This document shows, in pieces, positions 40,201-56,569 of a DNA stretch of 64,000 nt. Each line of letters opens with the position of its first letter. Positions within the stretch are counted from its first letter, which is position 1. A program made the position numbers and the translations under genes. Source of the DNA: Myxococcota bacterium. Lineage in GTDB: Bacteria; Myxococcota_A; UBA9160; JAFDDA01. The notes under the pieces were generated by a model. The model saw nothing but the letters and a program-made list of their open reading frames with translations, searched no databases and was not told where the DNA came from. The DNA is taken from the NCBI GenBank assembly GCA_965228475.1, contig OZ245817.1:224001-288000 (forward strand), given 5' to 3'.

Positions 40201-40212
40201 CGGTTCCCTCTC

Positions 40213-40235
40213 GATGTTCCGATTAATGGAACATC
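40213..40235. promoter_or_regulatory. Candidate IclR operator GATGTTCC-N7-GGAACATC
   Basis: Perfect 8-bp inverted repeat 12 bp upstream of the IclR start. Confidence 0.75.
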
Positions 40236-40278
40236 TATCCGTCAGTTGAAACGATCCTACTCGCGCGCCCCCGTGGAG

Positions 40279-41961
40279 TCAACCGGGGATTCCGAGCCGC
40301 AGCAGCGCCTGGGCCGCGCGGGCTCCGTCGATGGCGGCGCTCATGATCCCGCCGGCGTATCCCGCCCCTTCGCCGCAGGGGAAGAGGTTGGCGAAGCCCT
40401 CGGCGGTGAAGTGCTCGGCGTGGCGGGGCATGCGGACGGGGCCGGAGCTGCGGGTCTCGACGCCGACGAGGATCCCTTCGGCGCCCGCGAAGCCCGGGAT
40501 CTCGCGTTCGAAGGCGGCGAGCCCGCGGGCCACCGCCCGGTGCACCGGCTCCGGCAGCAGGCGGTCGAGCCGGGCCGGGCGGGTTCCGAAGCGGTAGCTC
40601 GTCCGGGCGAGTCCGGCGCTCGGCCGTCCGGCCAGGAAGTCCGGAACCGCCTGGGCCGGCGCCGTGTAGTCGCCGCCGCCGGCCGCGAAGGCGGCCCGTT
40701 CGAGTTCGGCCTGGAAGGCGACGCCCGCGAAGGGGCCAGCGCCGTACTCGCGCGGGCCGAGCGTGGTGACGACGGCCGCGTTGGCGAAGGGCGAAGAGTG
40801 GCGCGAGTTGCTCATGCCGTTGGTGCACAGCAGGCCGGGCTCGCTCACGCTGGCGACGATCTGCCCGCCCGGGCACATGCAGAAGGTATGGGCCGCGGGG
40901 CCGGCTTCGCCCGCGCGACACACGAGCGCGTAGGATGCTGCCCCGAGGAGGTCCGCCTCCGGCCCCTCGCCGTGGCGTCCGCGATCGACGAGTCGTTGAG
41001 GGTGCTCGACGCGCACGCCGAGCTGGAACGGCTTGGCCGAGAAGACGACGCCGTCCGCCGCCAGCTGCTCCCACGTGTCTCGCGCGCTGTGGCCCGGGGC
41101 GAAGACGACGGCGTCGCAGGCGATCTCGCCGTCGCTCGTTCGCAGGGCCGTCACGCGCTCGCGCGAACCCGGCGCGAGCACGAGTCCCTCGACCCGCACG
41201 CCGAAGCGGAAGCGGGCGCCGAGCGCTTCGATCCGCTCGCGCAGCCGGGGCAGGATGCGATGCAGGCGGTCCGTGCCGATGTGGGCGCGCGCGTCGAAGC
41301 CAATCGCTTCCGGCGCGCCGGCGGCGACGAGCTCCGCGAGGAGCGGTGCCTCGAGCGGGTCGGAGACGCGCGTGTAGAGCTTGCCGTCGGAGTAGGTCCC
41401 GGCGCCGCCTTCGCCGAACAGGAGGTTCCGCTCGGGGTCCGGCGTTCGCGTCCGGTCGAAGCGGGCGATGGCCCGGCCCCGCTCGCGCAGCCCCGGACCG
41501 CGGTCGAGAAGCGTCACGGCGACGCCGTGGCGGGCGAGGACGAGCGCGGCGAACAGACCGGCGGGCCCGGTTCCGACCACCGCGACCCGCGCACCCGCGA
41601 TCCCAGGGCCGACCGCGTCGACCTCGAGGCCGACCGCCTCGGGCGTCGCCGTCACCCGGCCCGCGCGAAGCGCCCGCTCGAGTGCGCCGCTCGTGGTGCC
41701 TTCGGCGACGGTGACGTCCGCGTGGAGGACGAAGGCGAGCCGCCGGTGAGCGCCGCGCTTTCTTGCATCGAGGGACTTGCGAACGATCCGAAGGCTCCGG
41801 AGCGCCTCGCCGCCGAGCCCCGCCGCCGCCGCCACCTGCTCGCGGACGGCGTCCTCCGGGGCGTCGACGGCCACGCGGACTCCGAGCACCCGCAGGTGTC
41901 GGAGCTTCCCGGAAGGCTCATCCACCCCGTCGGGCGTTCGCTGGCCAGGCTCCTCTTCCAC
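40279..41961 (-). CDS. FAD-dependent oxidoreductase (COG2509-like)
   Basis: SLDARK, GTGPAG, FGEGGAGTYSDGKL, HIGTD, FCMCPGG, GEGAGYAGGI. Confidence 0.88.
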   Translation of the reverse strand: MEEEPGQRTPDGVDEPSGKLRHLRVLGVRVAVDAPEDAVREQVAAAAGLGGEALRSLRIVRKSLDARKRGAHRRLAFVLHADVTVAEGTTSGALERALRAGRVTATPEAVGLEVDAVGPGIAGARVAVVGTGPAGLFAALVLARHGVAVTLLDRGPGLRERGRAIARFDRTRTPDPERNLLFGEGGAGTYSDGKLYTRVSDPLEAPLLAELVAAGAPEAIGFDARAHIGTDRLHRILPRLRERIEALGARFRFGVRVEGLVLAPGSRERVTALRTSDGEIACDAVVFAPGHSARDTWEQLAADGVVFSAKPFQLGVRVEHPQRLVDRGRHGEGPEADLLGAASYALVCRAGEAGPAAHTFCMCPGGQIVASVSEPGLLCTNGMSNSRHSSPFANAAVVTTLGPREYGAGPFAGVAFQAELERAAFAAGGGDYTAPAQAVPDFLAGRPSAGLARTSYRFGTRPARLDRLLPEPVHRAVARGLAAFEREIPGFAGAEGILVGVETRSSGPVRMPRHAEHFTAEGFANLFPCGEGAGYAGGIMSAAIDGARAAQALLRLGIPG

Positions 41962-42100
41962 ACCTTCTCCGTTCTGCAGCAGGCCGCTCGCGGGCCTCCG
42001 GCCGTGCTTCTCCCGGGATTCGGCCGTTTTTCGCCCAGCGGCTTCCCCGAAGGCGGTAGCATCGCACCGCTTTCACGATTCTCGATTGGGGGGAGAGACC

Positions 42101-43144
42101 ATGCACGACCCGGCCACGAAACGCACCATCGCCCAGGCCGTCGGCCTGGCGTTCGCTCTCCTCCTCGCTCCCCAGACCGCCCGGGCCGAGTGGGTCGATT
42201 GGATCCTCGAGGCCTCCTTCGAGACGAAGTTCACCGACAACCTGAACCAGACCGCCTTCGACAACGACGAGGCGAGCGACTTCATCTTCTCGCCGAAGCT
42301 CGCGGCCGGCCGGATCTTCCAGCTCGGCGACCTCACCCGGCTCTCGGGAACGATCGACGTCGAGGGGACGACCCATGCCCGCTTCGATCGTCTGAACGCC
42401 GTCACCTACGGCGTCACCGTGGCCGCGCACCACAAGTTCGGACTCGGGCGCAACAAGCCCTGGGCGCGGGCGCACGCCTCGGGCGCGCGCTTCGACCTGC
42501 GCGAGCACGGCCGCGACAGCTGGCTGATCGGGACGGGGCTCGAGTTCGGCAAGCGCTTCACGCCGCGCTTCGACGTCTCGATCGGCTGGGGCTACGACGT
42601 TCGCGAGGCGGAGAGCGGCCGCGCCGCGGTGGTCGGATTCAACGACAACGTCTGGGATCAGGCGCGCCACCGCGTCACGGCCCAGGCAAACTTCCTCGTG
42701 ACGGACCTGCTCCTCTTCACCGGCGGTCTCGAGTACCTGAACGGCGACTTCCTCTCGAGCTGCCCGAAGGTGAACACGGCCGCGGCCCTCGGCGTTGGTC
42801 CCGGGCCTGGCCCTGGACCCGGGCCCGGCCCCGGACCTGGCCCTGGACCGGGGCCCGGACCCGGCCCCGCGCCCGGCCCGGGCGTTGCCGCCGTGGCCGG
42901 CGGCGGAAGCCTGCTGCAGCGGGAGAGCCCGCAGTCCCTCGCCCTCGACGAAGTCTTCGGCAACGATCCGGGCGACTGCATCTATCGGATCGACGGAGAG
43001 ATCTACGCCGCCTTCGTCTCGCTGAACTACCCCGTGACGGACCGGGTGAGCGTCGACCTCGGCTACCGCTTCCAGCACGGCGACGGCAAGATCCTGCACT
43101 ACCAGACGAACTCGGCGAACCTGACGTTCACCTACCGCTACTAG
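42101..43144 (+). CDS. Outer-membrane beta-barrel protein with (GP)n loop
   Basis: Signal peptide; amphipathic strands; C-terminal LTFTYRY. Confidence 0.75.
   Translation: MHDPATKRTIAQAVGLAFALLLAPQTARAEWVDWILEASFETKFTDNLNQTAFDNDEASDFIFSPKLAAGRIFQLGDLTRLSGTIDVEGTTHARFDRLNAVTYGVTVAAHHKFGLGRNKPWARAHASGARFDLREHGRDSWLIGTGLEFGKRFTPRFDVSIGWGYDVREAESGRAAVVGFNDNVWDQARHRVTAQANFLVTDLLLFTGGLEYLNGDFLSSCPKVNTAAALGVGPGPGPGPGPGPGPGPGPGPGPGPAPGPGVAAVAGGGSLLQRESPQSLALDEVFGNDPGDCIYRIDGEIYAAFVSLNYPVTDRVSVDLGYRFQHGDGKILHYQTNSANLTFTYRY
42797..42883 (+). repeat. Coding repeat (Gly-Pro)12-Ala-Pro-Gly-Pro-Gly
   Basis: Read directly; synonymous codons vary. Confidence 0.95.
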
Positions 43145-43146
43145 CC

Positions 43147-43785
43147 GTGAAGCTCGCATTGTTCCTGGCCTGGGCGGTCGTTGCCGCGCTGCCGGCGTCG
43201 GCCGGCACCGTCACGGCGACGATCGTCGACAAGAAGGGCAAGCCGGTCGAGGACGCCGTGCTGCTGGCCTACCCCGCTTCGCCGGGGAAACGCGCGCGCA
43301 AGCCCGCCACGGTCGACGTCGACCAGGTCGACAAGGAGTTCAAGCCGCGGGTGTCCGCCGTCGCGGTCGGGACGCCGATCCGCTTCCCGAACTACGATCA
43401 GATCCGCCACCACGTCTACTCGTTCTCGCCCGCCAAGAACTTCGAGATTCCGCTCTACAAGGGCGTCCCCGCGGAGCCGATCGTCTTCGACCAGCCCGGT
43501 GTCGTGACCCTCGGCTGCAACATCCACGATTGGATGCAGGGCTGGGTGTTCGTGGCGGAGACGCCCTACTTCGTGGTGAGCGATGCGAGCGGCAAGGCGG
43601 AGCTGACGGGTCTTCCCGCGGGAGCGACGAGGCTCCGCGTCTGGCACCCCAACCTGAAGGGGAAGCCCGAGGCGACCGAGCAGGCCGTCGAGGTCGGCTC
43701 CGGGAGTCAGGCCGTGGCCTTCGAGATCGACCGCAAGAAGGGTTGGAAGACCCGCCGCGGCGGTCGCAGCCGCGACCGCTACTAG
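43147..43785 (+). CDS. Secreted cupredoxin-like protein ('methylamine utilization protein'-type)
   Basis: DQ.DKEF.P, FPNYD.IRHHVYSFS, LGCNIHDWM, VWHP; GTG start 2 bp after the barrel stop. Confidence 0.8.
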   Translation: MKLALFLAWAVVAALPASAGTVTATIVDKKGKPVEDAVLLAYPASPGKRARKPATVDVDQVDKEFKPRVSAVAVGTPIRFPNYDQIRHHVYSFSPAKNFEIPLYKGVPAEPIVFDQPGVVTLGCNIHDWMQGWVFVAETPYFVVSDASGKAELTGLPAGATRLRVWHPNLKGKPEATEQAVEVGSGSQAVAFEIDRKKGWKTRRGGRSRDRY

Positions 43786-43802
43786 GCCCATCGCGAGAAG
43801 CG

Positions 43803-44453
43803 CTATTTGCCGAAGCCTTCCGGTGCGTCCGGCTGGTTCTCGGGCGCCGCGCGCTGGAACGCTTCCAGTTCGAGGCAGCGGTCTGCGATCCCCGTGAGGG
43901 TCGGGTAGGGCCCGAGGTCGATGCCACCGCGGCGCGCGTTCCCAACCTGGGGAACCACGCAGACGTCTGCGAGGGTCGGGGCCTCGCCGTGGCAGAAGGA
44001 TCCGGTGGCGGGGTGATCCGCCAGGAGCGCTTCGAGCGCCGCGAGGCCGCGCTTCACCCAGTGCCGATACCAGTGGCCGCGGTCTTCGTCGCTGACGCCG
44101 ACCTCGCCGAGGTGGACCAGCACCCCGGTGTTCTGGAGCGGCTGGACGTCGGCGACCACGGCCAGGGCGAGCTGGCGGACCCGGGCGCGCCCGGCGGCGT
44201 CCGCGGGCAGCAGCGGCGGCTGCGGAACCTTCTCTTCGAGGTACTCGAGGATCGCGAGGGCTTGGCTCAAACGGACGTCGCCATCGACGAGGAACGGGAC
44301 CCGTCCCTCGGGGTTCAGCGCGAGGTATTCGCCCCCGAGCTGCGCCCCCTCGAAGAGGTTCACGAAGACCGGCTCGTAGGAGAGCCCCTTCCACTCGAGC
44401 GCGATCCGTACGCGGTAGCTCGCCGACGACAGAATGAACGTGTAGAGCTGCAT
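43803..44453 (-). CDS. maiA: Maleylacetoacetate isomerase (zeta GST)
   Basis: SSASYRVRIAL, QALAILEYLEE, DVQPLQN, PENQPD. Confidence 0.92.
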   Translation of the reverse strand: MQLYTFILSSASYRVRIALEWKGLSYEPVFVNLFEGAQLGGEYLALNPEGRVPFLVDGDVRLSQALAILEYLEEKVPQPPLLPADAAGRARVRQLALAVVADVQPLQNTGVLVHLGEVGVSDEDRGHWYRHWVKRGLAALEALLADHPATGSFCHGEAPTLADVCVVPQVGNARRGGIDLGPYPTLTGIADRCLELEAFQRAAPENQPDAPEGFGK

Positions 44454-44520
44454 TCCGCGAGTCTATCGGACCTGCCCGGGCACCGGCCTTGCGGCGCGGC
44501 CCGGTTGCTAGCCTCTTCGC

Positions 44521-45390
44521 ATGGCTGCTCTCCCCCATCCTGCCGGGGCGGCGATTCGCCACGCTCCGCTCCGTGCGCCGCACCGCATGGCGATGGGCCT
44601 CGCGCTTCTCGGGGATCCCGCGCAGTGGCTCGTCCTCGATGCGGACCTCGAGCAGGACGCCGCGGAGAAGCGACGCCTCTTTGCCGAAGTGCCGTCGCAG
44701 GTGTTCGTCGAGCTCCCCGCTTCCCGGGCGGCGCAGCGTGAGACGCGGGACGTCCTCGCCGCGCACCTCGCCGCGCATCATCCGGACGCGCCCCGGCCGC
44801 TCCCGGCGGACGGGGAAGCGCCTCCGCTGCTCGCCGCGAGCTGGCGCGTCCAGGAAGATCTCTCTCTGCTCGAACGGGACGAGTCCTGCTGGCGGCTCAC
44901 GGCGGCGAGCGTCTGCTTCCCGACGCGCTGGGATCTGCCTTCGAAGCTCGGCGACACGCTGACCGGGATCCACGACCCGGTTCCCGGCTACCGAGCGGCG
45001 CTCGGGGCGCCCGCGGAGCGCTTCTTCGACGGCCTCCGCCCGGGCCGGATCGCGGTGCGCGCGAACTGGTCCCTCGTCGACTCGCCGGAGCTCTTCCAGC
45101 CGCTCCACGGAAACCGCGACGCGGCGCGCCACGTCACCCATGAAAACGTGGCGGAGTCCGTCTGGCTTCGCACCGAGCGGCAGACCCTGTGCCGCATGCC
45201 CGAGACCGGTGCCGTGCTCTTCACGATCCGCGTGCTGCGCGATCCGCTCGCGGCGTTCGCGGAGGCCCCGGAGCGCGCGCGCCTGCTCGCGGAAGATCTG
45301 CGGACCCTTCCCGAGGATCTCGCCCGCTACAAGTCGATCCCTGATCTACGGCGCCCCGTCCTCGCCTGGCTCGATGCCGTTGCGCGTTGA
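44521..45390 (+). CDS. DUF3445 / heme-dependent oxidative N-demethylase alpha-subunit-like protein
   Basis: QEDL, VCFPTRW...KLG, IHDPVP, RANW, RTERQTL..MP.TGAVLFTIR. Confidence 0.85.
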   Translation: MAALPHPAGAAIRHAPLRAPHRMAMGLALLGDPAQWLVLDADLEQDAAEKRRLFAEVPSQVFVELPASRAAQRETRDVLAAHLAAHHPDAPRPLPADGEAPPLLAASWRVQEDLSLLERDESCWRLTAASVCFPTRWDLPSKLGDTLTGIHDPVPGYRAALGAPAERFFDGLRPGRIAVRANWSLVDSPELFQPLHGNRDAARHVTHENVAESVWLRTERQTLCRMPETGAVLFTIRVLRDPLAAFAEAPERARLLAEDLRTLPEDLARYKSIPDLRRPVLAWLDAVAR

Positions 45391-46020
45391 ACGCAGACGC
45401 TTCTCCATGAACACGCGGCCCGGCGAGCCCGTCACGCGTTCGTAGCCGCGCACGGTGCGCTCCGCCGTCACGGCAAGCCCCTCGCGCTCGTAGAGCCGGC
45501 GCGCCGGGTTCGACATCAGCGTGCTGAGTACCAGCCGCTCGCAACCGCGCTCCTTCGCCACGGCTTCCGCGCGTCGAAGCAACCGTGCGCCGAGCCCGCG
45601 GTTGCGCGCGTGCGGCGCGACGTGGAGTTCGACGACGTGCAGCGCCCGGCCCGGGAGCGGAAAGCTCAGCCGCGATCGCAGCCAGCCGCGATGGGCGAGC
45701 CCGGGGATCTGCCACGGACGGAACGTCGCGAGCACGGCCGGCAGGACCGACGCGCCCGCGACGCCCGTTTCACCTCCCGCGCTTCCCGTTTCCTCCACGG
45801 CGAGCACGCCGACGGGCGTCGCGCCCTCGAAGGCCGCGTGGAGCTCCAGGCTCGGGGCTGGGTGGGCGCCCGTCTCGAAGAGGCGCTCTCCCAGGCGACG
45901 GGCGAGCGTTTCGCTTCCGGCGATGCCGCTCATCTCGGGCCCCGGCGGTTCGTAGATCAGTCGCGCTGCGGCGGCGCGTTCGTCGGGGCGGACGGCACGG
46001 ATGTCGAGCGCCTCACCCAC
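45346..46020 (-). CDS. GNAT N-acetyltransferase
   Basis: LHVAPHARNRGLGARLL, NPARRLYER.G. Confidence 0.85.
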   Translation of the reverse strand: MGEALDIRAVRPDERAAAARLIYEPPGPEMSGIAGSETLARRLGERLFETGAHPAPSLELHAAFEGATPVGVLAVEETGSAGGETGVAGASVLPAVLATFRPWQIPGLAHRGWLRSRLSFPLPGRALHVVELHVAPHARNRGLGARLLRRAEAVAKERGCERLVLSTLMSNPARRLYEREGLAVTAERTVRGYERVTGSPGRVFMEKRLRSTRNGIEPGEDGAP

Positions 46021-46636
46021 CGAGTGAGACCAGACCGGAGACGAGAGCTGCGAAGAGCAGGGAGGACGGGCCGATCGCGAGGAGCGCGGTCCAGGCGAAG
46101 CGCCCAAACGGCACGCCCTTCATCGCGGCCGCGATGTTCACGGCGTGCGCGCCGTAGGGGACGTAGCGGCCGAAGATCAGGAACGCCGGGTGGTCGGCCG
46201 GAAGCCGCTTCAGGAATCCCGGAAGGCGTTCCAGGGTCTTCGGGTCCGCGTCGAGGTCGCGCACCATGAAGCGGACCAGGCCGTACTCGAGGAAGCTTCC
46301 GCCGACCCAGCCGAGCCAGCACAGGAAGGCGCCGAGCCAGAACCCGTAGACGCCGATGCTCACCGCGGCCACCAGTTCCCCGGGAACGGGGGACGCGGAG
46401 ACCACGATCTGCGCCGGCACCAGGAACCACATGGCCGAGGTGCCGAAGCGCTCGCGGATGCCTTCGGCCCCGCCGAGGGCGTCGATGCCCTGGACGAGCA
46501 GCACGCCGCCGGCCACGACCGCGAGGAAGGCGAGGAACCCGCGCGAGCGGATCACGCGCCCGGCAAGGCTCGTTTCGGGTTCGAGCGGGTCGGTCAGGGT
46601 CTCGAGTTCGGCCGGTGCGTCCACGTCGTCCTCCAT
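46013..46636 (-). CDS. VTT/DedA (TVP38/TMEM64) membrane protein
   Basis: SPVPGE, YGFWLG, RYVP...VN.AA; start could be 46651. Confidence 0.75.
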   Translation of the reverse strand: MEDDVDAPAELETLTDPLEPETSLAGRVIRSRGFLAFLAVVAGGVLLVQGIDALGGAEGIRERFGTSAMWFLVPAQIVVSASPVPGELVAAVSIGVYGFWLGAFLCWLGWVGGSFLEYGLVRFMVRDLDADPKTLERLPGFLKRLPADHPAFLIFGRYVPYGAHAVNIAAAMKGVPFGRFAWTALLAIGPSSLLFAALVSGLVSLGG

Positions 46637-46751
46637 CCTGCGGGAGGGCATCGCAAGCCCCGTGCCGGGAGGCGGCCGTCTGGGGCCCGGTCCGCGGGTG
46701 CGGCCTGCCAGGGGCAGCCGACACCCGCAGCCTACGGAGCGCAGGAAAGCC

Positions 46752-46804
46752 TTGACATGGGAAAAAATCCCACGCATGATTCAGTTGAGTGGGAATATTT
46801 CCCA
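46752..46804 (+). promoter_or_regulatory. Sigma70-type promoter TTGACA-N17-CATGAT with two TGGGA-N5-TCCCA palindromes
   Basis: -35 at 46752-57, -10 at 46775-80; palindromes at 46758-72 and 46790-804. Confidence 0.8.
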
Positions 46805-46838
46805 TTCTATAAAACTCAATGAAATCGGAGACTTCACC

Positions 46839-47312
46839 ATGCGAGCCCCCTTCCTCTTTGCCTTGGCTCCCCTCCTCCTGGCCCTCCCGGCCTCGGCCCA
46901 GGAGATCGCCGTCGATCTCGACGATCTGGGCGATTCGGTCGAGATCGTCCGCGAAGCCGAGATCGCGGACATCCTTCGCCCCGTCCCGGACCGCGACTCC
47001 GTGGATACGGCGATCGTCTTCACGAACAAGCGCGGTTCCCAGACGGCGGCCAAGTGCATCGGCCTCGATGCCAAGGGCAACGTCGTCGGGCGCGCCTACA
47101 CGCGCGTCGCCGCCAACGGCCTCGCGATCCTGTTCGCCTCGGACCTGACGGACGACGCCGACGTGATCGGCAGCGCGCGCTGCGCTTCGCGTCCGGGCGT
47201 CGTCGCCTCGGCCTTCCTGCTCTCGCCCGGCAGCGTCACGGATCTCCCCGTGCAGCAGCGCCGAAGCCGCGGCGCGAAGCGGATCCTGGTCCCGGTGGTG
47301 GCCACCTACTAG
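46839..47312 (+). CDS. Secreted hypothetical protein (beta-rich, two Cys)
   Basis: GGAG SD; signal peptide ending ASA. Confidence 0.75.
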   Translation: MRAPFLFALAPLLLALPASAQEIAVDLDDLGDSVEIVREAEIADILRPVPDRDSVDTAIVFTNKRGSQTAAKCIGLDAKGNVVGRAYTRVAANGLAILFASDLTDDADVIGSARCASRPGVVASAFLLSPGSVTDLPVQQRRSRGAKRILVPVVATY

Positions 47313-47380
47313 GGAGGGGGACCGGGGGTGCCGCTCGTTCCCCAGGAGCGGCCCCCCGGTCAATCCGGTATCCCTCGGCC

Positions 47381-48241
47381 ATGCCGCGTTGGCGTCGCGT
47401 TCGAGCAGGCTCGCTGGCGTTGCTGGGCGGGGTCGTTCTCGCCTGCCTTCTCGCTTCCCGGCCCGCCGGGGCGAGCGAGGAGGCCGTCTCCGCCAAGCCG
47501 TGGTGGGCCGGCGAGCTCGCGCTTCGGGTCGGCGCCGACTGGAGCAGCGGCGACTACGGCGGCGCCGAAGAGACGGACCTCTGGTTCGTGCCCGTCTCGC
47601 TCGGCTACACCTTCGACGGCTTCGCCCCGACGCCCTATGCCTGGGATCAGTTCGAACTCCGCGTGAGCAGTTCGTACCTGCGCATCCGCGGCCCCGGGGA
47701 CTTCTTCACCGACGGCGCGGCCGGCGTCAGCGCGAACCGCCGCAGCGACGAAGGCGTCGGTGACACCTGGCTGCGCGGCATCTACGTCTTCCTGCCGAAG
47801 CCGACGATGCCGCTCCCGGTCTTCGAACTCGAAGGCAAGCTCAAGATCCCGACGGCCAGCAACACCCGGGACCTCGGCACCGGAAAGCTCGACGGCGCCC
47901 TCGAAGCGACGGTCTCGCGCAGCTTCGGCCCGGTGACGCCGCTGCTCTCGGTCGGCTGGCGCTTCCGCAAGGACCCGGCGGCCACCAACCTGCGGAGCCA
48001 CGCCACCGCGAGCGCCGGCGCGAGCTTCCGGCTCCACGAACGCCTCAGCGCAGGCCTGCTCTACGACTGGCGCGATCGTTCCGCCGAGGGCCGCTCGCGC
48101 TCCCACGAGCTCGTCCCCCACCTGAGCTTCAAGCCGACGCCGCGGGTCGCGATCTCCCCCTACGCCGTCTGGGGGATCGCGGGCTACGTGCCGGACTACG
48201 CGTTCGGCGTGACGTTCCGCTACCAGATCCGGATCGACTGA
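47381..48241 (+). CDS. Outer-membrane beta-barrel (MetA-pathway/transporter-like)
   Basis: SSGDYG, GVGD, KIPTA...LGTGKLD, C-terminal FGVTFRYQI. Confidence 0.75.
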   Translation: MPRWRRVRAGSLALLGGVVLACLLASRPAGASEEAVSAKPWWAGELALRVGADWSSGDYGGAEETDLWFVPVSLGYTFDGFAPTPYAWDQFELRVSSSYLRIRGPGDFFTDGAAGVSANRRSDEGVGDTWLRGIYVFLPKPTMPLPVFELEGKLKIPTASNTRDLGTGKLDGALEATVSRSFGPVTPLLSVGWRFRKDPAATNLRSHATASAGASFRLHERLSAGLLYDWRDRSAEGRSRSHELVPHLSFKPTPRVAISPYAVWGIAGYVPDYAFGVTFRYQIRID

Positions 48242-48268
48242 GACGATCGGAGCGTCGCCGGCCGGCGC

Positions 48269-49525
48269 TCAGCGCACGTCGAAGATCTGGATGGCGTCCT
48301 GGGTCGGCGCGCGCTCGATCCGGTCCGGCCGCTCGAAGACCTCGGGCCGTTCGAGCTCCGGCCGCTCGGGGGTCTCGGGCCGCTCCGGCCGTTCGATCCG
48401 CTCCGGCTTCACCGGCCGATCGGGCCGCTCGACGGGCCCGACGGCGGCGCGTTCCGGTCGAACCCGGGTCGCTGCGCCCCCGCTCCGAGCGTCCGGGCGT
48501 TCCGGGGCCACGGGCTTCGGCAGCGCGCCTGGGCCGGGCCGTTCGGGCTTTTCGGGACGCGTCGGTGTTTCGCGAACCAGCACCCGCTCGGCGCGGACCG
48601 CGCGCTCGCGGAGCGGCCCCTCGGCGATGATCCGGCGGTCGCGCTCGGGCCGCGCCCCGGCTTCCGCCGGAAGCTCGAGCTCGATGCCCGGTAGCGCGAC
48701 CGTGCCGGGGCGCTCGCCGGGCCGCGCGTAGCCCTCGATGGAGAGTCGTTCGAAGACGCGGCCCCCCGCGCGCCCGCTCGCGAGCTCCGCGCGGATCTCC
48801 GCGAACCGGGCGCGGCCGTCGGGCATCCGTGCATGCCGGACCACACGGGAGGCCACGAGTCTTCCATCGGCGCCGGGGAGCGCCGCAACTTCCAGGGCAT
48901 CGCCGGGTTCGAGTCGTTGGAAGGTGAGCGGTGCCGCGTCGGAGCTCGAAACGATCGGGGTTCCGAACGGAACCTCCACCACGCGGCCTCCGACCACCAG
49001 GCGTCCGCGCGCGTCGTCGAGCGCGGCGATCACGCCGAGGACCGCGCTCACGACTTCGATGCGGTCGGTGAAGAGCCGGCCCGCGCGCGGCTCGGCGACG
49101 AGCCAGACCACCTGGCCCACCGCGAGGTCCCGTGTCGTGCCGACCGTTTCACCGCGGAGGAGCACCGTCGCTCCCGCGTCGTAGCCGATGCGGAGACCGT
49201 TCACGCAAAGGCTCCCGAAGCCCGTGACGGTGCCGAACACACCCGTCCCCCCGACGCCGCCCGCCGGCAGATGGCCCGTTCCTCCGACGCCGCCTTCGCG
49301 TTCGGGCGCGTTCCCGGTCCCCCCGACGCCGCCGCGGGGGGAGAGCCCGGTGCCGCCGACCCCGCCCGGGCTGTGCCCGGTTCCGCCGAGCCCCGAGCCC
49401 CCGGAGCCGGCGAGCAGGGTGGCGTCGGCCAGGGCGCACGGGCCGTCCGCCGCCGCGGGCGCGCCCGCGCAGGCCAGCGCGAGGGCGAGCAGGGCCCGCG
49501 TGGCGATGCGCGCCGGGCTAGCCAT
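48269..49525 (-). CDS. Exported DUF5666-domain protein with GGxGGTG and ERP repeats
   Basis: Signal peptide; 5x G[GS][VL]GGTG-type repeats; GTVTGFGSLCVNG; C-terminal ERPE repeats. Confidence 0.8.
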   Translation of the reverse strand: MASPARIATRALLALALACAGAPAAADGPCALADATLLAGSGGSGLGGTGHSPGGVGGTGLSPRGGVGGTGNAPEREGGVGGTGHLPAGGVGGTGVFGTVTGFGSLCVNGLRIGYDAGATVLLRGETVGTTRDLAVGQVVWLVAEPRAGRLFTDRIEVVSAVLGVIAALDDARGRLVVGGRVVEVPFGTPIVSSSDAAPLTFQRLEPGDALEVAALPGADGRLVASRVVRHARMPDGRARFAEIRAELASGRAGGRVFERLSIEGYARPGERPGTVALPGIELELPAEAGARPERDRRIIAEGPLRERAVRAERVLVRETPTRPEKPERPGPGALPKPVAPERPDARSGGAATRVRPERAAVGPVERPDRPVKPERIERPERPETPERPELERPEVFERPDRIERAPTQDAIQIFDVR

Positions 49526-50378
49526 CGCTCTCGTCCTCATCCCCGAGGGCTTCGTAGAAGTAGATCCCGAAGTTGATGCGGCCCTCGGCGCCCTCGGCAT
49601 CGCCGTCGCGGCGCTGCAGCGCGAGGGCGCGCTCGTTCACCGAGAGCAGCGCGTCCATCCCGAGCCGCTCGGAGAGCTCGCGCAGTTCGGCGACGGCCTC
49701 GGGGGTCAGGCCGTCGTAGTAGACGCTGCGATCGGGCAGGGTCGGCTCGCCGCCGCGCAGGTTGTGCGCGCCGGCGGCCGCATGGTCCGCGAGGTTCCGG
49801 CCGAAGAAGAAGGCCTTCTCGTCGAACCCCTTCTCGGGGACGAAGGCGCGCGTGTTCAACACGACGCGGTCCTGCGAATCGATCCCCGCCACGCCGAGCC
49901 GGAGCCACTCGTCGAGGACCGTGCGCGGCCGAACGTCCTTGCTGACGGACTCGACGAGCCCGTCGAAGGAAACGGCACCACCCTGGCTCGCGAGCCGCGG
50001 GAGCGGAAGCGGGCGGCCCCGCGCGTCGCGGTAGGCGGGCTCGCCGAGCCAACGTGAGACCAGCAGCGCGCCGAGCGACGCGGTCCGTCTCGCCTCCGGG
50101 TTGCCGCCTTCTTCCCGCAACCGCTTCACGTCCTTGCGGTGCACGCCGGTCAGCAGGTGCACGCGCGTGTTGGTCTGACGCCGGCCCTCGAGCGGGAAGT
50201 CCCGCTCGGCGACCTCGACGTAGATCTCCTTCAGCAAACCGGCGAGGACCGGAAAGGTCACGCGATGCTCGACGAGCAGGCGAACCAGGGGCCGGAGCAG
50301 TCGACGCAAGGCACCCAGCAGCGCGCGCGGCGGTGCGCCCGCGTCCTCCGGCTGGCCGCCGCTGGGCTTTGCGCTCAT
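49518..50378 (-). CDS. DUF6502 family protein (putative DNA-binding regulator)
   Basis: RRLLRPLVRLL, LLTGVHRKDV, SFDGLV..VSKDVRPRTVLDEW, NLADH..A..HNL, GIYFY; GGAG SD. Confidence 0.82.
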   Translation of the reverse strand: MSAKPSGGQPEDAGAPPRALLGALRRLLRPLVRLLVEHRVTFPVLAGLLKEIYVEVAERDFPLEGRRQTNTRVHLLTGVHRKDVKRLREEGGNPEARRTASLGALLVSRWLGEPAYRDARGRPLPLPRLASQGGAVSFDGLVESVSKDVRPRTVLDEWLRLGVAGIDSQDRVVLNTRAFVPEKGFDEKAFFFGRNLADHAAAGAHNLRGGEPTLPDRSVYYDGLTPEAVAELRELSERLGMDALLSVNERALALQRRDGDAEGAEGRINFGIYFYEALGDEDESDG

Positions 50379-50425
50379 CGTGTCTCCGTCGTGTCCCCGG
50401 GGTGGGGAAGAGGTTCTCGCGAGCG

Positions 50426-50440
50426 TGGGAAAAAGTACCA
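50426..50440. promoter_or_regulatory. Third TGGGA-N5-T(A)CCA site upstream of DUF6502
   Basis: TGGGAAAAAGTACCA, one mismatch to the palindrome. Confidence 0.6.
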
Positions 50441-50582
50441 CAACAAGCGAGGCGCGCCTCTCGTGTGGATCGCGTTCTCTGACAAAAAGTTCAATTCAAT
50501 CAATCCTTTGCGGGGGTTTCTGCCGGCCCGGTTCCGGCCATCGGGGTGGGGAAGCCGAGTCCCTCCCGGTACCGTCTGGACC

Positions 50583-51041
50583 ATGACTTCCCGAGGCCAT
50601 CGTCAGACTCCGCTCTCGCCCCGCCGCGCCGGTGCCATTCTCCTCACGCTGTTCGCCCTTGCCTGCGCGCCGGCACAGGAAGGCGGCGGCGAGGGCCCGC
50701 TCGTCGCCTTCGAAGAAGACCGCTTCGGACTCGTCGTGCAGGAGGTCGCCGCGGAGGGGAGCCGCGCGCTGCATACCCGGCTCACCCAGCGCGGCGAGTG
50801 GCACTTCAGTCTCGACTACCCGATCCGCATGGAGCTCGAGGCCGAAGGCCTCGCGCTGCAGCGGACCTGGCGCAAGGCCGAGGCGGTGGAAGTGGCCGAA
50901 GGTGCCGTGGCGTTCCAGGTCCCCTTCGAGGTCGCGAAGGAGGGCGGCGGTCGCGTGGCCGGGACGCTGCACTTCGGCGTGTGCCGGTCCGACGAGCTGT
51001 GCGAACCGGTCAGCGAAACGTTCGAGACGCGGCTGCGTTGA
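50583..51041 (+). CDS. Lipoprotein with DsbD-N-like Ig fold
   Basis: LALAC lipobox; WHFSLDYP; FGVCRSDELCEP (CxxxxxC). Confidence 0.6.
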   Translation: MTSRGHRQTPLSPRRAGAILLTLFALACAPAQEGGGEGPLVAFEEDRFGLVVQEVAAEGSRALHTRLTQRGEWHFSLDYPIRMELEAEGLALQRTWRKAEAVEVAEGAVAFQVPFEVAKEGGGRVAGTLHFGVCRSDELCEPVSETFETRLR

Positions 51042-51068
51042 CGTGGGGGCGGCCGGGGACGGCCTCGC

Positions 51069-52697
51069 TCAGGCGCTGACGGCGATCTGCGGCCGCGGAG
51101 CGACTCGCTGCGGCGCCCGCTCCCGGACGGGGTTCTGCAGGCGCTCGAGCCGCTCCTCGAGATCGAGGACGAGGTTCGCCGAGCGCCGCACGGAGATCGC
51201 GCTCTCCCCCGGTTCACCGGCGGCGATGCGGCGGCCGATCTCGTCGTACATCAGGCGATACGCGTCGAGCCGCGGGATCCGGCGCCGCCGCAGAACGCGG
51301 CTGCCGTTCTCGGCCTGGTAGCGCGACTGATCCTCGATCGTCACGGTGGCGCCGTTGGCGCGGAGCTCGACGTGGTCTCGGACCCCGAGGCGCCGGCTGC
51401 CCCGGTCGGTGAGGGCCATCGTGAAGAACGCACCGTTCTCGAGGGTGACGGAGGCGTTCAGCGACCCGTCCGGCGCAGCGGCGAGCTGCATGTCCGAGAC
51501 CGCAGCGAACTCGTTCAGGTAGAGGAAGTGGTCGAGCCAGTGGCAGCCGTTCGAGAGCAGGCGGCTTCGCGAGTTGGGCCAGCGGTACCAGTGGAGGGCC
51601 GGGAGCGGCACCTCGAAGACGACCGCGTGGTAGGAAACCGGCTCCCCGGGCTCGACGCCGAGGTCCTCGCGGGCCATGGCGTTGAAGGGCAGATAGCGCC
51701 GCTGGTAGCCGCTGAAGACGGAGCCGTTGCCTTCGCGCATGGCGGCGAGAAGCTCGCGAAGCTGCGGGCGCGTCGTCGCGATGGGCTTCTCGATGAGCAC
51801 CGCCGCGCCGCGCCGGAGCGCCTCGGCCGCCACGGGCGCGTGGGTGTGGTGGTAACCGGCGACGATGACGGCGTCGTGGGTCTGCTCGGAGAGGTGCGGG
51901 GAGCTGTCCCAGGTGACGCCGGCCGGGCGGCGGAGCGGGATCTGGGTCGGATCGATCTCGTGGATGCGGTCGACCGTCAGGTGGTTCCGGAGCGCCGGGA
52001 GGGCGACGGTCTTCGCGTAGTTGCCGTAGCCGAACAGGGCGGCGCGAGGCCGGCCGTCGATTCGATCCACCCGCGGAGCCGGCAGGACCGTGGCCGGCGC
52101 GGTCTCCGGCGCCGCGAAGGACTGTGCCTTCTTCCAATCCGCCTCGCGGACCGCGCGCCCGGCTTCCTTCATGAGGATCTCGAGCGCGGCGCTCGGAAGG
52201 TTCAGTCCGGCTTCCGCGTGCCATCCGCGGACCCCGACCCACCACGCGGCGCCATCGGAAGGTTGGAGCGCGAGATGGAGGAGCGTGTTCTTCGCCAGTT
52301 CGGGGACGGCGCCCGACTCCGCGGCCACCACGAGGCCTTCGGGTACGACGACGCCGTCGGTGCAGGCGGGACCTGCGGGAGACAGGAACACGACGCTCTC
52401 ACCGGTGCGCAGCTTCCCGCTCCCGGGGCACTCGACGACGCGGCCGAAGCCGCAGGAGACGAACTTCGCGTTGCGATGGCGCTCGCTCGTCCGGGAGAGG
52501 ACCTTGCGGGCCGTGGCCGTGGGGCCGATCTCGCGGAGGTAGTTCCAGACGAGCCGGGCGTTGCGCGGCTTGGTCGGGTAGAGCCCTTCGATGGCCTCGA
52601 GGTTCAGGAGGCCGCGGACCTGGATCCGGACCTCGTGCTCCCGGCGGTGGGGGTCGGCGAGACCCTCGACCCAGTCCTTTCCCAGCCGTGCGCGCAC
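51069..52697 (-). CDS. Gfo/Idh/MocA oxidoreductase with N-terminal extension
   Basis: AGGAGG SD before GTG 52697; GYGNYA, HHTHA, IEKP, GYQRR, NGCHWLD. Confidence 0.82.
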   Translation of the reverse strand: MRARLGKDWVEGLADPHRREHEVRIQVRGLLNLEAIEGLYPTKPRNARLVWNYLREIGPTATARKVLSRTSERHRNAKFVSCGFGRVVECPGSGKLRTGESVVFLSPAGPACTDGVVVPEGLVVAAESGAVPELAKNTLLHLALQPSDGAAWWVGVRGWHAEAGLNLPSAALEILMKEAGRAVREADWKKAQSFAAPETAPATVLPAPRVDRIDGRPRAALFGYGNYAKTVALPALRNHLTVDRIHEIDPTQIPLRRPAGVTWDSSPHLSEQTHDAVIVAGYHHTHAPVAAEALRRGAAVLIEKPIATTRPQLRELLAAMREGNGSVFSGYQRRYLPFNAMAREDLGVEPGEPVSYHAVVFEVPLPALHWYRWPNSRSRLLSNGCHWLDHFLYLNEFAAVSDMQLAAAPDGSLNASVTLENGAFFTMALTDRGSRRLGVRDHVELRANGATVTIEDQSRYQAENGSRVLRRRRIPRLDAYRLMYDEIGRRIAAGEPGESAISVRRSANLVLDLEERLERLQNPVRERAPQRVAPRPQIAVSA

Positions 52698-52804
52698 GCA
52701 ACTCCTCCTACCGTGGAGTGGGAGGGAGCCGGTGTGTCGTGGCACAAGAAGTTGCGGCGCTCCGGAGAAAACCCGTAAATGGATGGATTTGCTATGGAAA
52801 TTGT

Positions 52805-53866
52805 TCAGCGGGTGGGGCGGAAGCAGTCCACGAGCCGCTTCGCGTAGGCGACCACGTGCCCCACCTTGGCCGCCTCCGTGCGGCCCAGGCGCACGACCAC
52901 GAGATCGAGCTTCGGGCTCATCAGGATGCGCTGGCCGAAGGCGCCGTTGCAGGAGAAGAGGCCGAGGCTCCCCGGGATCACCCAGAAGTGGGCGCCGTAG
53001 AGCCCGTCGGATTGGGGGCTCGGTGTGCGCACGTAGTCGACCCAGCCCTCGGGCAGGATCCGCCGGCCGTCGAAGACGCCGTCGCGCAGGTGGAGCAGGC
53101 CGAAGCGGGCGAAGTCCCGGGCCGAACAGTAACAGTGGCTTCCGCCGACGAAGGTCCCGGCTTCGTCGAAGCGCGGCTTGGCGGTCGTCATGCCGAGCGG
53201 TTCGAAGAGCTCTTTCGCCATGAAGGCGCGCATGCCGTCTTCACCGCCGCCGACGGTCTCCGAGACGAACCGCGAGAGCAGGTTGCTGGCGCCGCTGTTG
53301 TAGTTCCAGCGGGCCTCGGGCTCGGCGACCTTGGGCAGCGTCGCCGCGAAGCCGGCGACGTCGTCCTTGCCATGGCCGAACAGCATCGGGATGACGTCGG
53401 ACTCCTCCTCCGGGTAGTAGCGGACGGATCCGTTGCCGAGATGCTCGGCTTCGCGGAAGCGCAGCCCGTCGACCATGCGGAGCATCTGATCGACGGTGAT
53501 CGCGCGCCGCGGATCGCCCTCTCCCCACTCCTTCACGGGGATCGGCGCGTGGAGGTCGATGCGTCCTTCGCGCACGAGGATGCCGACGAGGGCGCAGGTG
53601 ATGCTCTTGGCCATGGACCAGGAGAGGAACGTGTCGTCCGGCGAGACGTCCGGCGCGTAGCGTTCCGCCACGATCGCGCCGTGCTGGACGATCACGACGC
53701 CGTGCGTGCGTTCGAGATCGTCGGGTTCGGGCTGCGCGAAGGCGTGGTCGAGCAGGGCCTCGAGCGCGTCGCGGTCGACGGCCGGGTCGAGCGGCGCTTC
53801 GGGCCACGCGGTGGTGGGCCAGGGGGTCTCGGCAGGCTGGGTCGGGAGCGGGAGGAGGTCCGGCAT
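52805..53866 (-). CDS. Serine hydrolase (beta-lactamase class C-like)
   Basis: SWSMAKS (SxxK), WNYNS, ARDFARFG, GAFGQ. Confidence 0.9.
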   Translation of the reverse strand: MPDLLPLPTQPAETPWPTTAWPEAPLDPAVDRDALEALLDHAFAQPEPDDLERTHGVVIVQHGAIVAERYAPDVSPDDTFLSWSMAKSITCALVGILVREGRIDLHAPIPVKEWGEGDPRRAITVDQMLRMVDGLRFREAEHLGNGSVRYYPEEESDVIPMLFGHGKDDVAGFAATLPKVAEPEARWNYNSGASNLLSRFVSETVGGGEDGMRAFMAKELFEPLGMTTAKPRFDEAGTFVGGSHCYCSARDFARFGLLHLRDGVFDGRRILPEGWVDYVRTPSPQSDGLYGAHFWVIPGSLGLFSCNGAFGQRILMSPKLDLVVVRLGRTEAAKVGHVVAYAKRLVDCFRPTR

Positions 53867-53987
53867 GGCGGGAGCATACCATTCGGGTCTTTCCGACCTC
53901 GGCGGGGTCTCTCCGAACTCGGAGCAAGGTCTGCCCGCGGCCGATGGTTCTTGAAAAGGCTCATCCGTTCTCAGAGACTGTTCGGCC

Positions 53988-56261
53988 ATGCGAAGACACA
54001 GCGCGTTCGGGGCCTTGGCTTCTCTTCTCCTGCTCACGGGGGCGGGCTGCGGCGGCAGCGAGCGGGACGCCGGCGTGATCGAGGGGCCGGGCCGCACGGC
54101 CGAGGCCATCGAGGCCGTCGAACGCGGACAGGAAGCGGGCCGGGCGGGCGTCGACGGCGTCGCGGGGGGAGCGCGCTCGGCGCCTCCGCGGCAGATCCTC
54201 TTCGGCGACCTCCACGTCCATACCACCTTCTCCCTGGACGCGTTCTTCTTCTCGCTGCCCGTCGTCGCGGGAGAGGGGGCGCATCCCCCGGCCGACGCCT
54301 GCGACTACGCGCGGCACTGTTCGCAGCTCGACTTCTTCGCCCTGACGGATCACGCGATGGGGATCTCGCGGGAGCACTGGGACGCGACGAAAGAAAGCCT
54401 TCGCCAGTGCCAGGCCCGCGCCGGCGATCCGGCGGACCCGGACATCGTGGCGCTCGCGGGCTGGGAGTGGACGCAGGTCGGCACGCGGCCGGACGATCAC
54501 TGGGGACACAAGAACGTGATCTTCCCCGGGCTCGCGGACGAAGAGCTGCCCGCGCGTCCGATCAACTCCTTGACCGACGAGCAGGCCGAGCTGGCCGGTT
54601 CCGGAGGCGGAGGGCGCCGTTGGGCGGGCGTCGGGACCAAGGTGATCGGTGCCCTCGATCCCCTCGGCTGGAGCGAGTACGCGGACTACGGTGCCTACCT
54701 CGAGCAGCTCGCCGAGCGCGAGGTCTGCGAGCGCGGCGTCGACACGCGCGAGCTCCCGCCGGATTGCGCCGAGAACGCGCCGACCCCGGGCGTGCTCTTC
54801 GAGAAGCTCGCCCAGTGGGGCCACCCCGTGATGGTGATTCCGCACGGAACGACCTGGGGGCTCTACTCGCCGCCGGGGACCGAACTCGACAAGCAGCTCA
54901 CCCGCTCGGAGCACGACCCGAAGGTGCAGGGGGTGATGGAGATCATGTCGGGCCACGGCAACTCGGAGGAGTACCGGAGCTTCCGCGCCGTCGAGCACGA
55001 AGGCGGGGAGGCGGTGTGCCCGGAGCCGAGCGAAGGCTTCATGCCGTGCTGCTGGCGGGCGGGCGAGATCATGCGCGAGCGCTGCGGCGAGCGGTCGAGC
55101 GAGGAGTGCGAAGAACTCGTCTCCCTCGCGCGACAGTACACGCTCGAAGCGGGGGTGAATCCGCAGCAGGTCTTTCCGGATACGCGCGGCGAGGATTGGC
55201 TCGACTGCGATCAGTGCCGCGACTGCTTCAAACCCTCCCTCGGCTACCGCCCGAAGGGTTCCGCCCAGTACGCCCTGGCGCTCGGGAACTTCGACGAACC
55301 GGACGACGCCGGTGACCCGATGCGCTTCCGGTTCCGCTTCATCGCTTCGAGCGACAACCACACCGCCCGCCCCGGCACGGGCTACAAGCAGTACGAGCGG
55401 CGCCGGATGACCGAGTCGACGGGGACGCGATCGGCCTTCTACGACCGGCTCTTCCGCTGGGCCCAGCAGCGTCCGCTCGGCGAGTGGGAGCCGGGGACGC
55501 CGACCGAGCCCCCGCCGCCCGGCCCGACGATCCGCGGTGCCGACACCGAGCGCGTGGCGAGCTTCCTCTACCCGGGCGGCCTCGCGGCCGTGCACGCTGA
55601 CGGCCGCAGCCGCGAAGCGGTCTGGGACGCGCTCCAGCGCGGCGAGATCTACGGAACGAGCGGCCCCCGGATCCTGCTCTGGTTCGACCTCTTGAACGGG
55701 AGCGAGGGGCCCGTGCCCATGGGCAGCGAGGCCGAGCTCGCCTCGGCGCCGCGCTTCGAGGTGCGCGCGGTCGGATCCTTCGTCCAGCAGGAAGGCTGCT
55801 CCGAGGAGAGCACGAGCGCCCTCTCCGAGGAGCGGCTCGACTACCTCTGCCGCGGCGAGTGCTACCACCCGAGCGACGAGCGTCACCCGATCGCGGCCAT
55901 CGAGGTCGTCCGCATCCGTCCGCAGATCCGGCCGGACGAGCCCATCGAAGATCTGATCGAGGATCCCTGGCGGCGCTTCGAGTGCGACCCGAACCGCGCC
56001 GAAGGCTGCGTCGTGCGGTTCGGCGACCCGGAGTTCGACCGCATCGCGCGCGACGCCGTCTACTACGTGCGCGCCATCCAGGAAGAGACCCCGGCGGTCA
56101 ACGGCGCGAACCTGCGCACCGAGTTCGACGCCGAGGGCCGCCCGGTGAGCACCGAGCCCTGCTTCGGCGACTTCCGCACGCCCTTCGACGAGGACTGCCT
56201 CGCCCCCGTGCAGGAGCGCGCCTGGTCCTCGCCGATCTTCGTGGGCCACGCGGGGAGCTGA
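53988..56261 (+). CDS. DUF3604 (PHP-like) lipoprotein
   Basis: GAGC lipobox; FGDLHVHT..SLDA, TDHA, SSDNH, YGTSGPRI, QERAWSSPI. Confidence 0.88.
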   Translation: MRRHSAFGALASLLLLTGAGCGGSERDAGVIEGPGRTAEAIEAVERGQEAGRAGVDGVAGGARSAPPRQILFGDLHVHTTFSLDAFFFSLPVVAGEGAHPPADACDYARHCSQLDFFALTDHAMGISREHWDATKESLRQCQARAGDPADPDIVALAGWEWTQVGTRPDDHWGHKNVIFPGLADEELPARPINSLTDEQAELAGSGGGGRRWAGVGTKVIGALDPLGWSEYADYGAYLEQLAEREVCERGVDTRELPPDCAENAPTPGVLFEKLAQWGHPVMVIPHGTTWGLYSPPGTELDKQLTRSEHDPKVQGVMEIMSGHGNSEEYRSFRAVEHEGGEAVCPEPSEGFMPCCWRAGEIMRERCGERSSEECEELVSLARQYTLEAGVNPQQVFPDTRGEDWLDCDQCRDCFKPSLGYRPKGSAQYALALGNFDEPDDAGDPMRFRFRFIASSDNHTARPGTGYKQYERRRMTESTGTRSAFYDRLFRWAQQRPLGEWEPGTPTEPPPPGPTIRGADTERVASFLYPGGLAAVHADGRSREAVWDALQRGEIYGTSGPRILLWFDLLNGSEGPVPMGSEAELASAPRFEVRAVGSFVQQEGCSEESTSALSEERLDYLCRGECYHPSDERHPIAAIEVVRIRPQIRPDEPIEDLIEDPWRRFECDPNRAEGCVVRFGDPEFDRIARDAVYYVRAIQEETPAVNGANLRTEFDAEGRPVSTEPCFGDFRTPFDEDCLAPVQERAWSSPIFVGHAGS

Positions 56262-56358
56262 TCCGCCGCGGAGCGCTGCGGAAGACTTCTACCCCCGTGC
56301 GAAGAATCTTGCGTTTTTCGCGTCACCCGGAGGGCCGGGGTGGGTACTCACGGGGGCC

Positions 56359-56556
56359 ATGACGCTCGGCCAATGCGCAAACTGCATGATGAACGCGCCG
56401 CTCCTGCTTCGCCGCTTCAAGGGAGCTGCCTATCGCGCGTGGATCTGCGAAGACTGCGAGCGGTCGATCCCGCTCGACGAGCTGCGTCACCCGGAGCGCT
56501 CCGTGGCCCGCGCGGCCCCGGCCGCTCGAAGCGCGCCGCCGCCCCGCCAGCGCTAG
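56359..56556 (+). CDS. Small zinc-ribbon protein
   Basis: CANC...CEDC in 65 aa, filling an otherwise empty intergenic gap. Confidence 0.55.
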   Translation: MTLGQCANCMMNAPLLLRRFKGAAYRAWICEDCERSIPLDELRHPERSVARAAPAARSAPPPRQR

Positions 56557-56569
56557 CCGCGCCCGCCCT

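Follow-up and report, generated by a model that had tools for sequence, protein, structure and literature searches.

Palindromic operators point to a predicted DUF6502 regulon of exported proteins in a Myxococcota bacterium

A 64,000-nucleotide (nt) stretch of a Myxococcota bacterium genome (GenBank assembly GCA_965228475.1, contig OZ245817.1, positions 224,001 to 288,000, forward strand; the whole stretch is called the window here) contains three copies of a 15-bp palindrome, TGGGA-N5-TCCCA, around a four-gene cassette in which one gene encodes a protein of the Pfam family DUF6502. The locus raises the question of which protein reads the palindrome, and with what effect on which genes. Site geometry, counts across genomes and predicted structures make it very probable that a DUF6502 dimer acts as repressor on two promoters, a strong one for exported proteins and its own weak one, and that a ligand at the hood-like end of the regulator lifts the repression. 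The cassette is likely a well-supported predicted regulon, through which DUF6502 gains a testable role and an exact operator. No paper on DUF6502, and none on HetR-like proteins, was found in a search of the open literature (subscription journals and supplements were outside its scope); DUF5666, the family of the neighbouring gene, appeared as table mentions in the parts of the literature available.

Operators and promoters in the window

The cassette is convergent, with the genes of the exported protein P0003 and of an outer-membrane beta-barrel (P0004) on the plus strand facing the DUF6502 (P0001) and DUF5666 (P0002) genes on the minus strand. The elements on which the regulatory reading depends were:

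46752..46757, plus strand: TTGACA, -35 hexamer of the target promoter (predicted)
46758..46772, no strand assigned: operator O1, exact match, 28.1 bits, occupying the whole 17-bp spacer
46775..46780, plus strand: -10 hexamer CATGAT
46790..46804, no strand assigned: operator O2, exact match, 30.6 bits, at about +4 to +18
49518..50378, minus strand: P0001, DUF6502 regulator of 286 amino acids (aa), clade A, ATG at 50378
50426..50440, no strand assigned: operator O3, one mismatch, 24.3 bits, 47 nt before the DUF6502 ATG (50378, minus strand)
50440-50432, minus strand: predicted extended -10 of the regulator's own promoter, TG-G-TACTTT, inside O3

The first-pass annotation of the window had placed three 15-mers at 46758-72, 46790-804 and 50426-40, the first within TTGACA-N17-CATGAT and the second just past the predicted start, and all three were recovered there, the last with its mismatch. 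Its distance of about 48 bp from the third site to DUF6502 measured 47 nt, and the overlap that it reported between the DUF6502 and DUF5666 genes was confirmed (8 nt, 49518-49525). Transcription is predicted to start near 46787 (plus strand), and O1 and O2 were 32 bp, or three helical turns, apart. The TTGACA-17-CATGAT element (46752-46780) was the sole promoter-like site found in 46500-51000 (shuffles 0.1). Contigs of two read runs (X1, X2) spanned the stretch, and a contig of a third (X3) covered both left sites, all with zero differences, and these runs may themselves be the source of the assembly.

Bare motif counts were not significant in the window (three matches at one mismatch or fewer vs 1.18 expected, with 12 of 100 shuffles reaching three) or in the genome (two exact N5 matches vs 0-3 for other spacers). 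The earlier statement that such 15-mers are unlikely by chance therefore failed on bare counts, and stood on clustering and on the AT core, which exceeded chance: both exact copies in the 5.0-Mb genome were O1 and O2, and among 47 one-mismatch copies an AT-rich core occurred in O3 (50426) only. Since counts within the window and genome do not by themselves show non-randomness, the argument is carried by other genomes. A matrix built from 149 sites that lie in other genomes ranked O2, O1 and O3 first genome-wide, with the next match at 11.1 bits; the next-best matches (about 11 bits or less) were tRNA-like and left a gap of 13 bits to O3. This ranking points to a regulon that, in this genome, consists of these two promoters.

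Linkage of the operator to DUF6502 across genomes

The palindrome lay upstream of 43 of 57 DUF6502 loci collected by homology to P0001 (at most one mismatch, at most 350 nt upstream of the match), and spacers of 2-4 and 6-9 gave 0 of 57 at the same threshold. Exact copies in 785 kb numbered 60 for spacer 5 vs 0-1 for other spacers, and the consensus extended to about 17 bp, gTGGGAW-N3-WTCCCAc. In the 45 genomes behind the first loci, the exact site was present in 33, and reversed controls totalled 13. Enrichment of the motif near DUF6502 orthologues, on which the earlier proposal had been staked, was thus found, and it was repeated in a second order.

Spacer length followed the regulator clade. 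A quick tree of 86 rows separated clades A and B, with a support of 100 on the dividing branch, and clade A, which includes the regulator of this window, pairs with TGGGA-N5-TCCCA, whereas clade B pairs with an N6 site. In the same order, 60 genomes were compared, 22 of them with DUF6502 (PF20112); the N5 pattern occurred in 15, all with clade A (15 of the 17 clade A genomes), and in none of the 5 clade-B-only or 38 family-lacking genomes (reversed control, 0). The N6 pattern was found in 6 of the 7 genomes with clade B and in 0 of the remaining 53, and genomes G019 and G038 contained both regulator clades and both site types. In a second order (80 genomes, 69 without DUF6502), a strict 17-mer was found in five genomes; these were 5 of the 7 clade A genomes, and 0 of the 69 lacking the family had it. 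Upstream regions there held N5-type palindromes at 7 of 8 A-type loci and N6-type palindromes at 6 of 10 B-type loci, a count that excludes four more divergent loci. The DUF6502 gene of G045 is a fragment, and its clade was assigned from the helix-turn-helix (HTH). Clade-specific spacers suggest, from these site pairings, orthogonal repressor-operator pairs.

Several points weigh against assigning the palindrome to DUF6502. At the threshold used, 14 of the 57 loci had no site, and two genomes (G004, G030) had clade A without the N5 pattern; the clade A gene of G004 (L069) had an N6-like site. The patterns were defined after the upstream regions had been viewed, matches adjacent to the regulator are not independent of this, related genomes are not independent of each other, and the sampled genomes are incomplete.

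It is highly improbable that a different, unlinked regulator binds the palindrome and has DUF6502 as one of its targets: the sites were absent from the 38 and 69 genomes lacking DUF6502, the spacer tracked the DUF6502 clade even within one genome, and the other proteins of the cassette have signal peptides. An origin of the sites as chance AT-rich promoter patches, repeat elements or RNA hairpins deserves virtually no credence. It would agree with the chance-level counts in the window and genome and with copies in genome G066 that sit within a longer palindrome resembling repetitive extragenic palindromic (REP) elements, but O1 lies in an untranscribed spacer, spacer 5 alone was enriched and 13 bits separate O3 from the next genomic site. 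The cross-genome counts refuted it.

The REP-like repeat of G066 (L193-L196) holds the exact operator core in seven identical copies, and the four copies that were fetched all sit within the longer palindrome. Single distant sites in L130, L131 and G066, located within genes or repeats, were taken to be chance occurrences. A divergent regulator (L058) had an N7 palindrome upstream, two B-type genes (L211, L221) had TGAGA-N6-TCTCA, and genome G107 encoded nine DUF6502 paralogues of several clades.

Site geometry and regulator architecture

In other loci, TTGAC[AG] directly abutted the operator in 34 of 149 unique sites, a few of these rows coming from near-duplicate genomes, and 29 of the 34 had A2 and T6 of a -10-like hexamer at 17 bp (counted from the listing). 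Tandem spacings clustered at 26-36 and 58-69 bp, the second site usually lying three helical turns downstream, as in this window. At sites near the regulator gene a different arrangement prevailed, with TGG-TAnnnT-TTCCCA in 13 of the 23 rows listed and a TGGTA start in 0 of the 34 TTGAC-abutting sites. Read across these alignments, the mismatch of O3 is a conserved feature and not decay, and because TGG-TAnnnT-TTCCCA recurs at regulator-proximal sites, O3 can be read as an operator with an embedded extended -10 promoter. The regulator start codon fell within a few bases after the operator in five loci (L070, L075, L111, L112, L119), which suggests leaderless regulator mRNA there; in L070 and L075 the ATG overlapped the operator end, and such near-leaderless starts fit a promoter inside the operator.

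Since the sites fill a sigma-70 spacer, follow a start or cover the regulator's own extended -10, repression and autoregulation by DUF6502 are likely. A DUF6502 dimer covering O1 and O2, on one helix face, would block the near-consensus promoter, and DUF6502 on O3 would cover its own weak promoter, giving negative feedback. Binding of a ligand to the hood would make the protein let go of the DNA, much as PatS acts on HetR, after which the exported proteins would be produced strongly. Tandem operators on a target promoter plus one on the regulator's own promoter are also the arrangement of local repressors of the TetR and MarR types; unlike TetR, the DUF6502 chain beyond the HTH is HetR-like. 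Of the autoregulating HTH repressor put forward in the first-pass annotation, autoregulated repression accordingly fits the predicted site geometry, and the plain HTH repressor gave way to a HetR-like one.

P0001 matched PF20112 with E 3e-36 (125 bits vs a gathering cut-off of 27; model positions 2-262 of 268) and P0002 matched PF18914, the DUF5666 family, with E 2e-9, so that both identities given at first pass were upheld by Pfam. DUF6502 comprises at least 3,136 clusters. The predicted P0001 model (predicted local distance difference test, pLDDT, 83.8) had a DNA-binding fold, the lack of which would have told against the first-pass reading: N-terminal helices with an HTH at 70-90, followed by a winged-helix-like middle (100-178) and a hood-like C-terminal domain (187-277). 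HetR chains took Foldseek ranks 1-5 (269-288 columns, E 0.05-0.14), and VIA-align gave HetR 4j00_A with Z 7.2 over 220 residues; the rmsd, or root-mean-square deviation, was 10.7. Against 48,161 chains, HetR was the sole full-length structural match, and the HetR hood with PatS (4ynl_B) by itself matched residues 187-277 (Z 6.2, 76 of 76 residues, rmsd 3.2); TetR entries aligned with the HTH part alone (41-92).

HetR (PDB 4HRI, 4IZZ, 4J00, 3QOD; hood with PatS6, 4YNL) is close to DUF6502 in length and has the same domain order as the model, with helices and HTH, a flap-like middle and a hood-like end (211-220 residues end to end). According to the accessible part of Hu et al. 2015 (PMC4649674), HetR is a transcription factor of a new type whose folds are peculiar to it, and an intertwined dimer that binds a gggN5ccc site and releases DNA once PatS6 binds the hood. 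Both proteins are associated with a palindrome built on GGG/CCC triplets and have a site in their own promoter, but DUF6502 sites read GGG-N7-CCC (clade A) or GGG-N8-CCC (clade B), and their geometry would point to repression. HetR is cyanobacterial, whereas the DUF6502 hosts named in records were Myxococcota, Pseudomonadota and Planctomycetota. The PatS-binding acids of the HetR hood are E253, E254, D256, D270 and D278; the DUF6502 hood has conserved acids at D198, E/D216 and D258, and invariant residues D198, N206, R217, R267 and G271.

The likeness to HetR has its own counterweights. The scores were modest (Z 6-7, where the tool rates Z below 8 as common; whole-chain rmsd about 11 Å), identity was 11-13%, and a Pfam scan of P0001 at E up to 0.05 returned only PF20112 and no HetR model. 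A 120-sequence DUF6502 profile found no HetR chain in PDB at E up to 10 and one unrelated weak match, and Atlas gave no usable match for DUF6502 outside PF20112. With modest scores and no sequence match, the claim is limited to a HetR-like architecture, at modest strength and as predicted by the model, and does not extend to membership of the HetR family. An architecture of HetR outside cyanobacteria, apparently shared by DUF6502, would bear on the origin of the heterocyst switch and offer a second system for studies of hood-domain signalling.

HTH residues S71, R72, T77, G78, R81, K82 and D/E83 were common to clades A and B, and so was the half-site. His vs Thr at position 80 was ruled out as determinant of the spacer, since L208, L210 and L211 have His with N6 sites; spacer length probably reflects dimer geometry. 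Unpaired C-terminal strands in the monomer model fit a dimer and do not show one.

That DUF6502 binds the palindrome but activates from it, or acts as dual regulator, in the way of HetR or of a shape-switching MerR-type protein that stays on the spacer, is quite unlikely. MerR acts from a site between the -35 and -10 elements, as would suit O1. HetR, the nearest fold, is an activator with positive autoregulation in the accessible part of PMC4649674, which also counts against repression. The spacer, however, already has the optimal length of 17 bp, next to a consensus -35, in 34 sites and needs no remodelling; O2 is placed past the predicted start and O3 over the predicted -10, all of which would suit a repressor.

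The DUF5666 partners were compared for a C-terminal signal, 59 of them remaining after 9 clade B/C, 9 cut, 7 non-partner and 1 duplicate rows were dropped. A C-terminal end resembling ERSGR, a pattern selected after inspection, occurred in 6 of the 59 (shuffled tails, mean 0.05, maximum 2) and was absent from P0002 of this window. A conserved C-terminal signal was thus not found in the partners in general, and RGSGR was absent from the partner proteins examined. Because the hood matches that of HetR and the ERSGR-like ends come near ERGSGR of PatS, it is conceivable, if improbable, that DUF6502 represents a HetR-fold branch widespread outside cyanobacteria and working as a peptide-sensing switch, in which fragments of exported tails re-enter the cytoplasm, bind the hood and lift repression. 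This would amount to a sign-reversed feedback circuit of the HetR-PatS kind with orthogonal N5, N6 and N7 operator versions.

Exported targets and other operator-linked genes

The remaining features of the cassette, with one further element between the plus-strand genes, were:

46839..47312, plus strand: P0003, exported protein of 157 aa outside any Pfam family; beta-sandwich of ASRT/ASRAH type (predicted), two cysteines conserved
47320..47361, plus strand: strong GC hairpin between P0003 and the barrel gene
47381..48241, plus strand: P0004, 286-aa outer-membrane beta-barrel of the COG4313 / PF13557 / FapF kind
48269..49525, minus strand: P0002, 418-aa exported DUF5666 protein with signal peptide, GGTG repeats, DUF5666 domain at 164-228 and Glu/Arg/Pro-rich tail

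Signal peptides were predicted on all three non-regulator proteins, and the genome has one copy each of DUF6502 and DUF5666. NCBIfam had no family for the four cassette proteins, and Rfam no match within 40000-57000 of the window.

The family of P0003 comprises 208 clusters and has no Pfam model; in it, 113 of 127 full-length members looked exported by a simple score and 105 had two cysteines. Its model (pLDDT 91) matched TM1070 1nc7 (Z 8.5, rmsd 3.5, 96 aligned; unrelated rows 5.3 and below) and ASRT 2ii7 (Z 5.3) with the wider aligner, Foldseek giving nothing clear, and weak sequence hints led to the same entries (E 0.85; 2 of 119 members). P0003 is thus predicted from its model to have the ASRT-type beta-sandwich fold of the ASRAH superfamily (PF07100; TM1070 1NC7, ASRT 2II7), its best fold matches. 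Sugar or small-molecule binding has been predicted for this superfamily, including its founding members, and in the accessible part of the source the stand-alone forms are intracellular and the secreted ones amidase fusions or actinobacterial lipoproteins (PMC2739507); P0003 differs in being both stand-alone and exported, and in its pair of conserved cysteines. Full-length homologues were present in 10 of the 60 same-order genomes, all with clade A. As 9 of 12 P0003-family genes had an operator within 260 nt, several of them far from the regulator gene, P0003 is, on the distribution of sites, a true regulon member, against which stand the 3 of 12 homologues without a site. Genomes lacking DUF6502 also encoded P0003-type domains, close to the C-terminal end of proteins 1000-1700 aa long (L151-L154), and no operator preceded the match.

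P0004 itself had no match in the Pfam scan. It scored 0.98 to PF13557 clusters in Atlas, 2 of 4 relatives scanned matched PF13557, and the barrel family profile matched FapF 5o67 (E 8e-8), with the PT[AG] motif in the family consensus. A barrel was present in 38 of the 57 DUF6502 loci; 22 of 29 convergent copies had no upstream site, which tells against a general control of the barrel, and by site position its predicted operator control is secure in this lineage only. The hairpin before it (z -3.07; 0 of 200 shuffles as stable) had no U tract, no terminator was called, and it may act to reduce expression of the barrel or to make the first cistron more stable. In the DUF5666 partners, GGTG-type repeats occurred in 57 of the 59 complete proteins, and the tail was charged and proline-rich.

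The control of an envelope module suggested at first pass found support for P0003 and for targets that are mostly exported, and not for the barrel as a direct target everywhere. Most likely, although this is the weakest step, the products form a cell-surface module for binding or uptake, made up of a predicted small-molecule- or sugar-binding P0003, a COG4313 channel and the periplasmic repeat protein P0002. A Fap-like export of extracellular matrix or fibre by the regulon is rather unlikely, though it has points in its favour, as the barrel family is homologous to FapF and many targets are small and exported, with long charged repeat tails and near-consensus promoters. FapF/COG4313 channels (PF13557; SphA, Pput2725, TcpY) share with P0004 the barrel family, PT[AG] and exported partners encoded alongside; unlike Fap, the cassette is without FapA-E or a C39 peptidase, and its barrel is short. 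COG4313 barrels are mostly uptake channels for hydrophobic molecules and Fap requires the FapD C39 peptidase, as far as the accessible part of PMC6173800 goes, and the peptidase family was unmatched among the cassette genes. Neither the FapD peptidase nor FapB/FapC was found in nine window proteins scanned, the rest of the genome not being searched. For P0003, a compact beta-sandwich with disulfide bonding is predicted, and by inspection the tails are Glu/Arg/Pro-rich and not amyloid-like, both points against Fap-like export.

Elsewhere, 36 proteins near sites were scanned, mostly without a Pfam family, and most had signal peptides by inspection. Weighing against a purely exported regulon, non-exported targets comprised alpha/beta hydrolases, a PqqD-like protein and two candidate small RNAs. 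The rarity of the operator in genomes allows it to read out regulons of uncharacterised exported proteins and candidate small RNAs.

A divergent alpha/beta hydrolase without evident signal peptide accompanied eight gammaproteobacterial loci (L013, L014, L017, L023, L027, L030, L037, L038). In Rhodospirillaceae-type loci, a divergent operator-flanked promoter led into a conserved sequence, about 190 nt long, in which indels break the frame and which closes with a hairpin showing compensatory changes (L003:7655-7856, minus strand; also L005-L009, L011, L012, L019, L025, L028, L035, L036, L055, L057). It had no Rfam match in the four loci scanned and is, from its pattern of sequence change, a candidate operator-controlled small RNA. 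In four alphaproteobacterial genomes, a distant operator was followed by a second conserved, apparently non-coding stretch, without Rfam match at E up to 0.1:

L188:3195-3480: second non-coding stretch
L189:3188-3480: second non-coding stretch
L191:2860-3140, minus strand: second non-coding stretch
L192:2760-3041, minus strand: second non-coding stretch

Genes behind a site included, among L031:3819-7463, L199:3203-3901, L159, L125:4103-5656 and L201:2918-3577, those for a 1215-aa multihaem cytochrome c, a type IV pilin-like protein (two related genomes), a C25 peptidase and a YceI protein.

Around the cassette in the window, positions 41933-43785 (plus strand) encoded another exported pair, with no upstream operator: a barrel-like protein of 403 aa containing a (GP)n insert and, after it, a protein with a carboxypeptidase-regulatory-like domain. 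A VTT-domain membrane protein (46013-46622, minus strand) was divergent from P0003, and a small exported protein with a weak DsbD_N match (50583-51041, plus strand) was divergent from DUF6502.

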